From Candidatus Falkowbacteria bacterium (GTDB lineage Bacteria > Patescibacteriota > Patescibacteriia > Patescibacteriales > UBA12465): a DNA stretch of 64,000 bases. The DNA lies in NCBI GenBank assembly GCA_037137655.1, contig JBAXJX010000002.1, forward strand, positions 165,730 to 229,729. The letters run 5' to 3'. This document shows positions 23,089 through 61,647 of this stretch, in pieces. The stretch's first letter is position 1. The number at the start of each line of letters is the position of its first letter. The notes under the pieces were generated by a model, which saw nothing but the letters and a program-made list of their open reading frames with translations, had not been told where the DNA came from and made no database searches. Both the position numbers and the translations under genes were made by a program.

Positions 23089-23161
23089 GTGCCCATAGCT
23101 CAGGGGTTAGAGCACCGCCCTTATAAGGCGGGGGTCGATGGTTCGAAACCATCTGGGCGCA
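23089..23161 (+). tRNA. tRNA-Ile (anticodon TAT)
   Basis: GTGCCCATAGCTCAGGGGTTAGAGCACCGCCCTTATAAGGCGGGGGTCGATGGTTCGAAACCATCTGGGCGCA. Anticodon stem CCGCC/GGCGG and loop CTTATAA give anticodon UAU. Confidence 0.85.
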
Positions 23162-23211
23162 CAAAGTGTTAAAAAAGTTCTTTTTAAAATATAAATTTAA
23201 AATAAGTGGTC

Positions 23212-23592: not shown

Positions 23593-24009
23593 ATGAAATT
23601 GGAAAATAAACTTGCTTGGGCCAATATATTTTGGCTAACTGGTACTATACTTATTATTGCTGAGGCCTGTGTTTTTTTAAGTCTCGGGTATTATGTTCTT
23701 ACTACTGGTTTAGTGATTAGTACTATACTTATTGTTTGTTCGATAAGTATAACATCAAACAGTAATAAGAAAATTCGCATATCAACACCGGAGATAAAGC
23801 TGGGTAAGATTTATCATTTGCTTTATTTTAATAAAAAAAACCATGTGATTGATGCTATTTTAGAATACACTAATAATGATGGTGATAGTACGATTGAAAT
23901 ATTTAGGGATGTTAAGTTTGCTGTTGATCCGTCGCGGTGTGATTTGAACACTTCCTTTGCTTCTTGTATGGTTGATCGTATGCCCAAACTCAATAAACTG
24001 GATAAATAA
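23593..24009 (+). CDS. Hypothetical membrane protein
   Basis: 138 aa with two N-terminal TM segments. Confidence 0.6.
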   Translation: MKLENKLAWANIFWLTGTILIIAEACVFLSLGYYVLTTGLVISTILIVCSISITSNSNKKIRISTPEIKLGKIYHLLYFNKKNHVIDAILEYTNNDGDSTIEIFRDVKFAVDPSRCDLNTSFASCMVDRMPKLNKLDK

Positions 24010-29762: not shown

Positions 29763-29797
29763 AAAAGCCGGTCATTTCTGATCGGCTTTTTGTTTTT
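29763..29797. terminator. Bidirectional intrinsic terminator
   Basis: Reads aaaa-gccggtc-atttct-gatcggc-tttttgtttttt. Confidence 0.65.
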
Positions 29798-29813: not shown

Positions 29814-30338
29814 TCAATCCCATCTTAAGATGAGGCCATTTTTTTCTAAAAATGAACTTATTTCTCTTACGGTTATTGCACCACAACCTTGGTATTTTAA
29901 TAAATCATCTTTGGAAAATTTAATTAAATCACCTAAGCTTTTTATATCGGCTTTAACGCAAATATTCTTAATACGGGTAGCATGAAAGCCAAGTTCTTCG
30001 TCTAAGATATCTTCAATCTTTATTTGTAAAAGTGAACTTATATCGATCATGACAAGTGATCTTTGCTTAGCCTCTTCTATTATATTAGGAATTGATAAAG
30101 CTATTTTTGTTAGATACTCGCAAGCAGATTCAAAGAGAATTATAAATTGTTTTTCCGTAATACCAACTTCTTTGGCATATTGCGCTATAGTTTTGCCGTC
30201 TTTATTAAATAGGGCCTCAACAAAAACTGGTTCAATCTTTCGGTGTATTAGTGGTTTTCCTTGATAAGCTATTTTTATAAATTCGCTGATTGTTTTAGCG
30301 TCATCTACTCGTTGCATGTAAAAAATTTTTTTAACCAT
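29814..30338 (-). CDS. Protein with C-terminal RNA polymerase alpha-CTD-like helix-hairpin-helix domain (paralog A)
   Basis: 174 aa. The C-terminus EELGFHATRIKNICVKADIKSLGDLIKFSKDDLLKYQGCGAITVREISSFLEKNGLIL is collinear with E. coli alpha-CTD [55 protein letters not shown]. Confidence 0.65.
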   Translation of the reverse strand: MVKKIFYMQRVDDAKTISEFIKIAYQGKPLIHRKIEPVFVEALFNKDGKTIAQYAKEVGITEKQFIILFESACEYLTKIALSIPNIIEEAKQRSLVMIDISSLLQIKIEDILDEELGFHATRIKNICVKADIKSLGDLIKFSKDDLLKYQGCGAITVREISSFLEKNGLILRWD

Positions 30339-30368
30339 GATTTGTATTTTTTAAGTTCAACAATAATT

Positions 30369-30869
30369 TTATTCTTTTCTGAGACTTAGACCAAATTTAT
30401 ACAAAGTGGCTTCAATTTCGTCTAATAGTTTAGCGCCAAATCCTGGTGTGCAGGCTAAGTCACCTCGACTTTTGCTTGTTAAATCTTCCAAGGTCTCAAT
30501 TTGATATTCAAGACAAGATTTTATTATTCTGGCTCGCAGACTTTGATGGAATTGAACATTGATAATTTCTTTTTTTAATGAGGCAGCTCGTCCAGTATCA
30601 ACTTCTGATTCATCGCGAAAAGCTTTGAGCATGTTTGGTATTTGATATGAAACTATTAATAATTGTTCATAGCCTTTTTCAAAGATCTCAAGCACCTCGG
30701 CTTCCGTTTTGGGGTTATCTTTTAATGTCTTGATATATTCGCTGGGGCTAACTTTATTAATTAGCAACTCGAGCATAATACTATTGCTCTCAAGTTCGGC
30801 TGGATTTTCGCCACTGTAGATTTGACTAATTAGGGCGGAAATTAAAAACTCTTTTTGTATCTTTTTCAT
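30369..30869 (-). CDS. Protein with C-terminal RNA polymerase alpha-CTD-like helix-hairpin-helix domain (paralog B)
   Basis: 166 aa with C-terminus FHQSLRARIIKSCLEYQIETLEDLTSKSRGDLACTPGFGAKLLDEIEATLYKFGLSL. It shares the central YQIPNMLKAF / LSIPNIIEEA region with paralog A. Confidence 0.65.
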   Translation of the reverse strand: MKKIQKEFLISALISQIYSGENPAELESNSIMLELLINKVSPSEYIKTLKDNPKTEAEVLEIFEKGYEQLLIVSYQIPNMLKAFRDESEVDTGRAASLKKEIINVQFHQSLRARIIKSCLEYQIETLEDLTSKSRGDLACTPGFGAKLLDEIEATLYKFGLSLRKE

Positions 30870-30911
30870 CGGTTTAATTTTTAAGGTTCGACATAGATTC
30901 TGTTAAAATGG

Positions 30912-30940
30912 ATATTACGATATTATTATTATTTTGTCAA
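30912..30940 (-). promoter_or_regulatory. Sigma70-type promoter for the alpha-CTD-like gene pair
   Basis: Minus strand reads TTGACA-aaataataataatatcg(17)-TAATAT. Confidence 0.6.
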
Positions 30941-31050
30941 ATAAAAAATCCCTTCTTGTGAAAGCGATTGGAGATGTTTACCTAAAGGCATTAATAAAAA
31001 TCTCTAAGGTTTGCCAGGCACCGATGTTTTGTTTTGGTTAAGATTGTAAT

Positions 31051-31087
31051 AAAAAAAAGAACGGCTCAGATGAGTCGTTCTTTTTTA
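31051..31087. terminator. Intrinsic terminator after the tRNA-Asp/tRNA-Gly pair
   Basis: 9-bp stem gaacggctc/gagtcgttc, flanked by A8 and T6 tracts. Confidence 0.7.
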
Positions 31088-31088
31088 T

Positions 31089-31163
31089 TGGAGCGGGTAA
31101 GGGGAGTCGAACCCCTATCTCGACCTTGGCAAGGTCATATAATAGCCGCTATACGATACCCGC
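31089..31163 (-). tRNA. tRNA-Gly (anticodon GCC), CCA encoded
   Basis: Reverse complement GCGGGTATCGTATAGCGGCTATTATATGACCTTGCCAAGGTCGAGATAGGGGTTCGACTCCCCTTACCCGCTCCA. Anticodon loop is TTGCCAA. Confidence 0.9.
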
Positions 31164-31178
31164 AATATTGTAAACTAG

Positions 31179-31252
31179 CGGAACGGACGGGACTCGAACC
31201 CGCGACCTCCGCCGTGACAGGGCGGCGCTCTAACCAACTGAGCTACCATTCC
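31179..31252 (-). tRNA. tRNA-Asp (anticodon GTC)
   Basis: Reverse complement GGAATGGTAGCTCAGTTGGTTAGAGCGCCGCCCTGTCACGGCGGAGGTCGCGGGTTCGAGTCCCGTCCGTTCCG. Anticodon loop is CTGTCAC. Confidence 0.9.
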
Positions 31253-31309
31253 AAACAAAAAATCTTAGATAAAGATATCTGTCAGAAATTTTAGCAAACT
31301 ATTTTGGGC

Positions 31310-31338
31310 TTGTCAAAGCCTAGGAGGTGCGCTATAAT
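31310..31338 (+). promoter_or_regulatory. Sigma70-type promoter for the dksA-like/lspA operon
   Basis: Reads TTGTCA-aagcctaggaggtgcgc(17)-TATAAT. Confidence 0.6.
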
Positions 31339-31372
31339 GTTCTTATCAATTATTAAGAATAATCGTAAAATT

Positions 31373-31774
31373 ATGAGTAATGAAATCAAGGCTGGCGAAG
31401 GTTTTGACGACGCAACTTTGAACGAAATTAAAGCTGGGTTGTTGAAAACAAAAAATCAAATTTTAAAAGATTTGGAGGATTTATCACGTAAAGATCCACA
31501 TGAGGTTGATAATTATTCAACTAAATTTCCAGAATACGGTGATAAGCCTGATGAAAATGCTCAAGAAATTAGCGAATATTCAGCTAATATCGTAACCGAA
31601 AAGGTATTGGAAGATACTTTGGTGGATATTGAGAAAGCTCTAAAAAGTATCGATGGTGGCAATTACGGCGTTTGCAAATATTGCGGCAATTTGATTAATG
31701 TTAAAAGATTACAAGCTCGCCCAACTGCCAGCTCTTGTGTTGATTGCAAATCAAAATTGCAAGAAAATGAATAA
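31373..31774 (+). CDS. TraR/DksA-family C4 zinc-finger protein
   Basis: Start taken at MSNEIKAG, downstream of the promoter. The C-terminal zinc finger is CKYCGNLINVKRLQARPTASSCVDCK. Confidence 0.8.
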   Translation: MSNEIKAGEGFDDATLNEIKAGLLKTKNQILKDLEDLSRKDPHEVDNYSTKFPEYGDKPDENAQEISEYSANIVTEKVLEDTLVDIEKALKSIDGGNYGVCKYCGNLINVKRLQARPTASSCVDCKSKLQENE

Positions 31775-33407: not shown

Positions 33408-33899
33408 TTACCATTGGTAATCAATTTCAGCGATAGTCATTTCAGTTTTTCCGGCCATAACTTTATCTCCAAGCTTTTTGCCGAGTAATTGGCGACCGAC
33501 AGGAGAAATGTAATCAATAATATAGACTTCTCCTTCTTTATGTGTTCCGCCATCAACAATGAGTTTTGTTTCGTCCCCGTTTTGATTACAAATAACAACT
33601 TGGCTGCCAATTGTAATCACATTTTTTTGTTTGTCGACAGAAACAATTTCGGCATTGTCGAAGGCCATTTGAGCGGCGCCTAATTTAGAATCAAGTTCGC
33701 CTTCCAATACTCTTTGATACTCTTCCACTTCTTGCCCCTTGTCTTTGGCGTCGGCTAATTCTTTGCAGAATTGTGCACACTTATTCTTTTGGGTTTTCAG
33801 TCTTTCTTCTAAGATTATTTTCATTTTCTTAGTCATTTTTTTAGCAGTCCTGTGTCGCATTATTGCCGCTCTTTCTGGCGTCATTATCTCATCTCCCAT
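33408..33899 (-). CDS. greA: Transcription elongation factor GreA-like
   Basis: Start trimmed to MGDEIMTPE (ATG at 33899) to avoid overlap with tsaE. An N-terminal coiled coil is followed by a C-terminal FKBP-like domain: ITIGSQVVI...YIIDYISPVGRQLLGKKLGDKV. Confidence 0.8.
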   Translation of the reverse strand: MGDEIMTPERAAIMRHRTAKKMTKKMKIILEERLKTQKNKCAQFCKELADAKDKGQEVEEYQRVLEGELDSKLGAAQMAFDNAEIVSVDKQKNVITIGSQVVICNQNGDETKLIVDGGTHKEGEVYIIDYISPVGRQLLGKKLGDKVMAGKTEMTIAEIDYQW

Positions 33900-33945
33900 T
33901 TTATACGGATTTAATGTTAAAAAACTTTTATTTATAAATTTGATA

Positions 33946-34398
33946 TTATATTTTTTTGGCTGTTTTGTCAAGACTAATTTTAATTTCTCGTTCATCCTCA
34001 TTTTTATGTTTGATCTCGATTTTAATGCTTTTTTTCGGTAAAATACCTCTAACTTGGCCGGCCCATTCAATTACACTAACAGTGTCGGCGCGGCCCAAAT
34101 AGTCAGTAGCACCAATTGCTTCTAGGTCATCAGCGCTGGTTATACGGTAAGCATCGATATGACAAAAATGGTTAATAGTTTTATGACCACTGACTTTGTA
34201 AATTTTCATTATCACAAAGGTTGGGCTATTAACTGGTCCTTTGATTTTAAGGCCAGCGGCTAATCCTTGACTTAAACAGGTTTTACCGGCACCAAGATCG
34301 CCGTTGAGGGCAAAAACTTCACCGCCACAACATGTCCGGGCTAATTGCTTGCCGAACTCGAAAGTGTCTTTTTGGGAGTGACTAATAAATTTTTCCAT
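33946..34398 (-). CDS. tsaE: tRNA t6A37 biosynthesis ATPase TsaE
   Basis: 150 aa with LNGDLGAGKTCLSQGLA (Walker A), SPTFVIM and HIDAYR motifs. Confidence 0.88.
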   Translation of the reverse strand: MEKFISHSQKDTFEFGKQLARTCCGGEVFALNGDLGAGKTCLSQGLAAGLKIKGPVNSPTFVIMKIYKVSGHKTINHFCHIDAYRITSADDLEAIGATDYLGRADTVSVIEWAGQVRGILPKKSIKIEIKHKNEDEREIKISLDKTAKKI

Positions 34399-61218: not shown

Positions 61219-61647
61219 ATGAAAAAAAATACCTATAAAAAAATTGTCGCTTTTTCAATTTTAGTTTTTTCTTTGTTTTTCTTTTTGGCTGCCAGTAACG
61301 CCATGGCCCAAAGCGGTGGTATTATACCGGATGGTGGCAAGAAACAAACTGGTAATTATGAATTAAATGACTTTGTGCGTTTAGGTCTTAATGTTTCACA
61401 GTGGATTTTGGGTATTACTGGCTCACTAGCTTTATTGTTTTTTGTTTATGGTGGTTTTACATTTTTAATTTCAGCTGGAGACAGCTCTAAGGTTGATGAG
61501 GGTAAAAAAATTATTTCCGGAGCAATTATTGGTTTAATTTTAGTATTTTCCAGTTATATGATTATCCAATTTGCCATGAAAACATTAGGTGTGGAATGGA
61601 AAGGTACGACCAATGCATTAAAAATTGATACCAATGTTGTAAAATAG
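61219..61647 (+). CDS. TrbC/VirB2-like (T4SS-pilin-like) small membrane protein common in CPR genomes
   Basis: 142 aa. A signal peptide (ASNAMAQ) is followed by two TM helices flanking ISAGDSSKVDEGKKIISGAIIGLILV. Confidence 0.55.
   Translation: MKKNTYKKIVAFSILVFSLFFFLAASNAMAQSGGIIPDGGKKQTGNYELNDFVRLGLNVSQWILGITGSLALLFFVYGGFTFLISAGDSSKVDEGKKIISGAIIGLILVFSSYMIIQFAMKTLGVEWKGTTNALKIDTNVVK

Follow-up and report, generated by a model that had tools for sequence, protein, structure and literature searches.

Two adjacent minus-strand genes, pA (P0002) and pB (P0001), lie in a 64,000-nucleotide (nt) stretch of a Candidatus Falkowbacteria genome (assembly GCA_037137655.1, contig JBAXJX010000002.1, positions 165,730 to 229,729 of the forward strand; the whole stretch is called the window below, and its own numbering is used throughout). 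By profile and predicted structure, the products of both genes end in a helix-hairpin-helix (HhH) domain of the type found at the C-terminus of RpoA, the alpha subunit of RNA polymerase (RNAP); this domain is referred to as the alpha-CTD, for alpha C-terminal domain. We tentatively propose, at slightly less than an even chance, that pA and pB are lineage-specific regulators of transcription or of DNA architecture that bind DNA or associate with RNAP. An earlier, sequence-only reading had described the pair as tandem paralogs of 166 and 174 amino acids (aa), and the open reading frames (ORFs) are exactly as it gave them. The two proteins align over their full length with 29% identity and 46% positives (E 6e-12), and of the 488 ORFs in the six frames of the window, each matches the other alone (E 1e-10 and 2e-11). 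The description of the alpha-CTDs as stand-alone has to be dropped, however, since both are two-domain proteins in which an N-terminal domain (N-domain) of about 100 aa precedes the CTD:

30369–30869, minus strand: pA, 166 aa.
30576–30869, minus strand: N-domain of pA, residues 1–98, acidic (isoelectric point, pI, 4.7), with a four-residue deletion at the turn of the helix-turn-helix (HTH)-like signature.
30372–30575, minus strand: alpha-CTD-like domain of pA, residues 99–166.
29814–30338, minus strand: pB, 174 aa, the apparent ancestral copy.
30027–30338, minus strand: N-domain of pB, residues 1–104.
30129–30188, minus strand: HTH-like signature in pB, IAQYAKEVGITEKQFIILFE, residues 51–70, with a predicted helix at 51–58, a VGI turn and a helix from 62.
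29817–30026, minus strand: alpha-CTD-like domain of pB, residues 105–174.

The C-terminal ~60 residues of both proteins score just over the gathering score of the Pfam family PF03118, RNA_pol_A_CTD (23.8 bits), with 25.7 bits for pA and 25.2 bits for pB, and the C-terminal 80 aa of pB alone reach 27.5 bits. A third family member, the 177-aa protein P0012 encoded on an 18-kb JGI metagenome contig (L001), falls short of E 0.01 on this model when searched alone. In a phmmer search of pB against the PDB sequences, 22 of the 23 matches were RpoA, including all those at E < 0.1, and with a profile built from the three family sequences every PDB match at E < 0.1 was RpoA; 3ihq_B, a Bacillus subtilis alpha-CTD, came first (E 1.4e-7). 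Structure prediction points the same way. An AlphaFold2 (AF2) model of pB built on the three-sequence alignment has a mean pLDDT (predicted local distance difference test) of 79, rising to about 90 over residues 105–170, while a single sequence gave a useless model with a pLDDT of 45. In the model the CTD folds into a compact (HhH)2 unit of five helices, superimposable on experimental alpha-CTD structures, and the best PDB match found by Foldseek was the B. subtilis alpha-CTD 1z3e_B, with a template modelling (TM) score of 0.89 and a root-mean-square deviation of 1.4 Å over 72 columns. All 50 of the PDB matches listed were RpoA, which is what the sequence-only reading had predicted for the last ~60 residues. 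The similarity ends there: NCBIfam rpoA models match pA and pB only at their C-terminal ends and far under the equivalog cut-offs (30.0 and 24.6 bits on TIGR02027 against a cut-off of 227.8, covering model positions 221–298 alone), and neither protein matches the N-terminal domain of RpoA, their own N-domain being all-helical in the model. The domain call is accurate but had already been made by automated annotation, in which pA is named 'RNA polymerase subunit alpha C-terminal domain-containing protein'; the value of the present work lies in the hypothesis that follows and not in a demonstrated mechanism.

The (HhH)2 domains of ComEA, RuvA and UvrC work as generic nucleic-acid binders, and pA and pB might in the same way act outside transcription, as nucleoid-associated proteins or in DNA uptake, repair or recombination. 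Such a role would find some encouragement in weak secondary Pfam matches to HHH_5 (E 0.025–0.1) and POLH-Rev1_HhH, and in the signal-peptide-like N-termini of many proteins with alpha-CTD repeats, which point to functions beyond transcription. Yet these secondary matches are below thresholds, every method ranks the RpoA CTD first and no unrelated HhH family scores above it. As judged from their sequences, moreover, pA and pB have no signal peptide, and no repair or competence genes are adjacent to them. We regard a generic HhH function as distinctly unlikely.

The CTDs of pA, pB and P0012 were aligned with those of Escherichia coli and B. subtilis alpha, and positions are given in E. coli numbering. 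Identity to the genuine alpha-CTDs is 18–31%, and the equivalents of R265, I275, L281, G296, L307, G311 and L314 are invariant in all three family members; R265 corresponds to R114 in pA and R122 in pB, and G296 to G145 and G153, respectively. The DNA-binding '265 determinant' of E. coli alpha comprises R265, N268, C269, G296, K298 and S299. Position 268 is occupied by Asn in pB (N125), Ser in P0012 and Lys in pA, and position 269 by Ile, Phe and Ser in the same order. The equivalent of K297 is Ala in all three proteins, that of K298 is Ile in pB and P0012 and Lys in pA (K147), and that of S299 is Thr in pB and P0012 and Leu in pA. The alpha-CTD motif that the sequence-only reading had written out for both proteins is accurate for pB but partly degenerate in pA, where the equivalents of N268 and G279 are Lys and Glu.

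The same reading had noted a shared N-terminal domain of unknown type, and indeed the paralogs align end to end over this ~100-aa region, for which we found no significant family match. The AF2 helices of the pB N-domain span residues 13–24, 32–44, 51–58, 62–93 and 95–104, with an invariant Pro84 inside the fourth helix. Residues 51–70 form a classic helix-turn-helix pattern that P0012 keeps, and the N-domains of pB and P0012 are both basic (pI 8.7). When the N-domain alignment was compared by hhalign with an alignment of seven sigma-70 region-4 sequences, it fell in the region 4.2 register with a probability of 15.8%, and Foldseek against viral models (BFVD) gave weak matches to phage Sigma70_r4, extracytoplasmic function (ECF) sigma and InsA-HTH proteins (E 0.27–1.2); against the PDB, the Foldseek search with the full pB model was dominated by the CTD. 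In NCBIfam the N-domain had no sigma-70 region 4 or HTH match, the PADLOC defence models gave no match at E ≤ 0.1 for pA, pB or P0012, and the best PHROGs match (E 0.024) was to families of unknown function. The NCBI name of pB is 'DUF1062 domain-containing protein': residues 32–134 align with positions 33–131 of the 135 positions of PF06353 at 26.6 bits, over a cut-off of 23, and this fragment alone scores 27.4 bits. There is no DUF1062 match for pA, for P0012, for pB residues 1–105 or for pB residues 60–134, and we rejected this family as an explanation because the match is marginal, specific to pB and lost when either half of the region is removed. We know of no function for DUF1062, which appears in the literature searched in gene-table entries alone. 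On the model, the pB N-domain is best described as an orphan domain with a possible HTH core.

We profiled the distribution of the N-domain family, a check that the sequence-only reading had proposed, and obtained three sequences. Word-index searches of 5.8 billion proteins, run with the single proteins and with the alignment, returned pA, pB and P0012, and an exhaustive HMMER search of 1.84 billion representatives gave P0012 as the sole further full-length relative. Pattern scans of genome, metagenome and viral contig collections revealed no further family members, and tblastn against phages and plasmids gave weak CTD-only matches to RpoA but no family member. P0012 matches pB at E 1e-27 and pA at E 3e-7, and its gene is followed in L001 by the same series as pB in the window (the 141-aa gene, VTT, glycosyltransferase, glycosyl hydrolase, EamA, and on to PheS and PheT). 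By sequence and gene order, P0012 is the ortholog of pB at a syntenic site. As for persistence of the paralogs in relatives, the ortholog of pB is intact in L001, although highly diverged, while pA is missing from it.

pA and pB form one apparent transcription unit, with the following features in and around it:

31089–31252: tRNA-Asp and tRNA-Gly genes, upstream of pA and pB.
31053–31086: terminator hairpin of tRNA-Gly/tRNA-Asp, upstream of the promoter-like site.
30941–30970, minus strand: conserved 30-nt hairpin with a T-run, CAATCGCTTTCACAAGAAGGGATTTTTTAT, which abuts the -35 hexamer and marks the synteny breakpoint.
30912–30940, minus strand: promoter-like site of the sigma-70 type, TTGACA-17 nt-TAATAT, with 10 of 12 consensus matches, 42 nt 5' of the pA start.
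30878–30889, minus strand: leader motif, GAACCTTAAAAA, 8 nt before the pA start codon.
30347–30358, minus strand: second copy of the leader motif, GAACTTAAAAAA, within the pA-pB spacer and 8 nt before the pB start codon.
29763–29790: terminator-like hairpin 3' of pB, 12 pairs of which five are G-C, with T-runs on either side.

The sequence-only reading had placed both genes in one unit behind a canonical promoter, and the two hexamers, the short pA-pB spacer (30 nt) and the hairpin are all present. The promoter is plausible but not proven, because promoter-like sites are frequent in DNA of 35% G+C (17 found in the window vs 8.7 expected), and L001 does not conserve its hexamers. We rejected readthrough or fusion of the two genes, which share a frame but are separated by three in-frame stop codons. 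The two leader copies belong to an 18-nt repeat (family D1) with 78% identity between the copy before pA and that before pB, and in L001 the motif lies 9 nt before an in-frame ATG two codons 5' of the called P0012 start. A specific operator or ribosome-binding-site function for the motif, GAAC(C)TTAAAAA, was rejected, its 10 matches in the window not differing significantly from the 5.8 expected; since A/T-rich leaders like it also precede other window genes, the motif is probably either a leader of generic type or a relic of the duplication. Across the window, genes have A/T-rich leaders, several of them with strings resembling (G)AACCTTTAAAA, and Shine-Dalgarno-like sequences occur at only 2 of the 40 gene starts examined. 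The hairpin at 29763–29790 sits between the convergent pB and 141-aa lipoprotein-like genes, and its flanking T-runs suggest a bidirectional terminator; it is conserved in L001, the intergenic region that contains it being 76% identical. No rpoA gene or further alpha-CTD paralog was found among the six-frame ORFs of the window. Two contigs from independent samples, one of 965 kb in ENA and one of 15 kb in Logan, contain the pA-pB pair in identical form. From these assemblies and from the intact pB ortholog at a syntenic site, we conclude that both genes are real; they look expressed and would encode small two-domain proteins of the cytoplasm.

Upstream of the pair the two contigs part. In L001 a Peptidase_C15 gene precedes P0012, and the terminator of that gene (L001 3843–3872) is identical at ~28 of 30 nt (~93%) to the window hairpin at 30941–30970, whose stem has one mismatch. 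This near-identity means that the promoter-proximal DNA is orthologous and that pA lies between the hairpin and pB. The window has no Peptidase_C15 gene at this point but tRNA-Gly and tRNA-Asp instead, as at a rearrangement breakpoint. From this arrangement pB appears to be ancestral, and pA either lineage-specific or lost elsewhere. The 18-nt leader repeat would fit a tandem duplication in which the leader was copied as well; alternatively, pA may have been lost in L001 through recombination between the two leader copies. Protein distances do not decide between duplication and loss, as they are similar for pA vs pB (24–36% identity by domain) and for pA vs P0012 (25–27%).

pB and P0012 share 39–44% amino-acid identity, against 75–95% for 9 of the 11 other genes shared by the window and L001. 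At the nucleotide level the coding sequences of pB and P0012 are 53% identical and those of the neighbours 76–85%, while the flanking intergenic DNA is 66–76% identical. The divergence is uneven within the protein, with 28% amino-acid identity in the N-domain and 54% in the CTD. Among the other genes of the syntenic block only a 138-aa ORF (23593–24009, plus strand) has diverged as fast as pB (43–45% identity to its L001 counterpart, number of non-synonymous substitutions per site, dN, 0.46); it has no Pfam or PADLOC match. The second exception, an 89-aa ORF, is 62% identical between window and L001. Formal ratios of dN to the synonymous rate (dS) are unreliable here because synonymous sites are near saturation. 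As read from these alignments, the rates speak for diversifying selection, allele replacement or a strong relaxation of constraint.

Under the last of these, pA and pB could be decaying or non-essential duplicates, the debris of an alpha-CTD gene, with pA maybe heading for loss. The non-synonymous divergence of pB is 4–10 times that of its neighbours, the family has three members in billions of proteins, and pA, besides being absent from L001, has lost the HTH turn and the equivalents of N268 and G279. Simple decay is argued against by the intact ORFs of pA, pB and the diverged ortholog and by the invariant hydrophobic-core and key residues of the CTD, which is clearly more constrained than the N-domain. 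Covariation in a three-sequence alignment was enough to lift the AF2 pLDDT from 45 to 79, and a genome of ~0.97 Mb would usually be purged of useless genes. We find decay improbable.

Starting from what is established above (the type of domain, the paralogy and orthology, the layout of the operon and the rate of evolution), we infer DNA binding, dimerisation and a regulatory role for pA and pB. The alpha-CTD-like head would contact the minor groove of A/T-rich DNA through the Arg and Gly that match E. coli R265 and G296, and a short linker would join it to the N-domain. The latter could provide a second DNA contact through its HTH, a dimer interface, or both, such that two heads act together. 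A two-head arrangement has a parallel in the alpha dimer of RNAP and maybe also in proteins with at least two alpha-CTD-like domains; we take two heads to be the usual unit because the best 148 non-family matches listed all carry at least two such domains. In this scheme pA would be a tandem duplicate, its leader copied with it, that no longer has the HTH turn and is now acidic; it probably acts as a modulator of pB, for instance as heterodimer partner or competitor.

Several observations weigh against pA and pB being such regulators. On the side of the head, the UP-element determinant appears only partly kept, the minor-groove Arg being present while the N268, K297, K298 and S299 positions are retained in part at most, and the pB CTD is slightly acidic (net charge -1). 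The HTH core of the pB N-domain is a lead from modelling that lacks statistical significance, and the N-domain alone had no match among PDB sequences (phmmer and profile search) and nothing consistent in Pfam. We found no candidate binding site, the repeated leader motif being similar to leaders seen before other genes. The family, besides being tiny, evolves unusually fast: dN between pB and P0012 is 0.65, compared with 0.06–0.18 for 8 of the 9 neighbours computed, conservation is lower in the pB coding sequence than in the surrounding non-coding DNA, and divergence this fast is atypical of a housekeeping regulator. Lastly, pA is absent from the only relative found.

In a rival reading the head is not on DNA at all but is directed at RNAP, where it would occupy the partners of the genuine alpha-CTD (sigma region 4, activators or NusA-type HhH repeats) as a decoy or anti-activator, or would dock RNAP in trans; if the RpoA of this genome lacks a CTD, it might even act as a detachable alpha-CTD. 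Both sequence and fold resemble the alpha-CTD specifically, the DNA-contacting K297 and K298 are lost in pB and P0012, and these two proteins keep an acidic DEEL at the position of E. coli D258/D259 (the '261 determinant'). Fast evolution, too, fits a protein-protein interface under conflict. The invariant equivalent of R265, however, is the key minor-groove residue, and the 261 determinant itself is damaged, with Gly in place of E261 in pB and P0012 and a deletion of DEEL in pA. The CTD profile, moreover, scores genuine RpoA CTDs (24–34 bits per domain) no better than free repeats (median 29, maximum 43 bits). Genes for DksA/TraR-type and GreA-type RNAP factors within 3.5 kb would suit a role at RNAP, but this link is not conserved, the upstream context in L001 being different, and we rejected a functional link of pA and pB to these genes for that reason. 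On balance an RNAP-directed mimic or adaptor seems to us unlikely, though less so than a generic HhH function.

Both nearby genes encode factors of the type that acts in the RNAP secondary channel. One is a DksA/TraR C4 zinc-finger protein (31304–31774, plus strand), with a 77-nt overlap between its ORF and the beginning of the lspA ORF, and the other a 220-aa protein (33408–34070, minus strand) in which the GreA/GreB C-terminal domain alone was detected.

The boldest form of the proposal that pA and pB are regulators is that pB, with pA, is a trans-acting alpha-CTD module that recruits or blocks RNAP, a long shot in our estimation. A sequence-specific HTH would tether the head at promoters, where it would engage sigma region 4 or RNAP in the manner of the genuine alpha-CTD; alternatively, the module would compete with the genuine alpha-CTD. 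In the extreme version the organism's own RpoA would lack a CTD, which pA and pB would supply in trans. If this were true, a bacterium of the candidate phyla radiation (CPR) that is poor in transcription factors would have gained a portable means of recruiting or blocking RNAP, and the hypervariability would stem from an arms race, either with phages or with the host on which this organism probably lives as an episymbiont. UP elements and class I activators dock mainly on the alpha-CTD, and a one-domain version with a putative HTH, in a genome of ~1 Mb, would offer a tractable entry to the role of free alpha-CTDs.

Elsewhere in the window, ARAGORN and Rfam both identify a tRNA-Ile with anticodon TAT (UAU) at 23089–23162 on the plus strand; tRNA-Ile(UAU) is an uncommon bacterial route for reading AUA codons. 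A 142-aa protein at 61219–61647 (plus strand) has a type IV secretion system pilin domain (PF18895) and is followed by a protein with HTH_25 and Glucodextran_B domains.

How, then, do pA and pB compare with known systems? With the alpha-CTD of RpoA (PF03118; 1z3e_B, 3k4g, 1lb2) they share the predicted fold, the Pfam family, the invariant equivalents of R265 and G296, the core residues and the C-terminal position after a linker. Unlike RpoA they have no alpha N-terminal assembly domain, and they are not RNAP subunits. The pA and pB CTDs also matched weakly the C-terminal extension found in one class of RNAP beta' subunits, at positions ~1297–1370 of the model NCBIfam NF011498 (PRK14906; E 0.003–0.13) and in a plasmid-collection match (H6) to Collinsella aerofaciens NZ_OY725717.1, 540180–540347 (tblastn E 8). 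These matches hint that beta' may carry an added HhH module of the alpha-CTD type in some lineages.

The sequence-only reading knew of no characterised function for the architecture, and in the literature searched we likewise found no paper characterising a free-standing alpha-CTD-like protein; such domains are not rare, however, since 1031 clusters at 50% identity match the family profile at E ≤ 1e-3. The best 148 non-family matches of these each have at least two alpha-CTD-like domains, and the architectures include tandem arrays of 2–13 repeats (P0003–P0005; up to 11 in our own count), a large group of ~445-aa proteins with tetratricopeptide repeats (TPR) and two alpha-CTDs, and proteins in which a signal-peptide-like N-terminus precedes the repeats. 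By a crude count, 14 of 149 alpha-CTD-repeat proteins have such an N-terminus (for example P0043, P0070 and P0139), which suggests that part of this predicted superfamily acts outside the cytoplasm. Judged by profile matches, alpha-CTD-like domains outside RpoA are common, not unusual. The free alpha-CTD-repeat proteins (P0003–P0150) resemble pA and pB in carrying an alpha-CTD-type domain outside RpoA, but have at least two per chain and score 70–450 bits on PF03118, whereas pA and pB have one and score ~25 bits; among the 148 listed, none matches the pA/pB N-domain alone, the best-matching stretches all including the CTD.

Three phage proteins in BFVD of 128–135 aa, each named 'RNA polymerase, alpha subunit, C-terminal' (A0A6J5QDR9, A0A6J5MNY7 and A0A6J7WD60), are likewise small two-part proteins, and Foldseek aligns them with pB over 139–146 columns that take in the helical N-part as well as the alpha-CTD. 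The best of the set is A0A6J5QDR9, with 146 columns, 26% identity and E 1.9e-4. These proteins are shorter than pB, and with global TM scores of 0.33–0.52 the same domain arrangement is not shown; in GenBank phages, tblastn gave two weak CTD-only matches. DUF1062 (PF06353) resembles pB above its cut-off but not pA or P0012. With sigma-70 region 4 and small HTH domains, pB and P0012 share an 8-aa helix, a Gly/Asn turn and a second helix, placed after two helices and in the 4.2 register; the turn is missing in pA, and this similarity is not statistically supported. What is known, in sum, is a widespread class of uncharacterised free alpha-CTDs, and what is new is the joining of an orphan N-domain to just one, diverged, domain of the alpha-CTD type; on the sequences compared here, its unusual feature is the fast-evolving N-terminal half, confined to three sequences.

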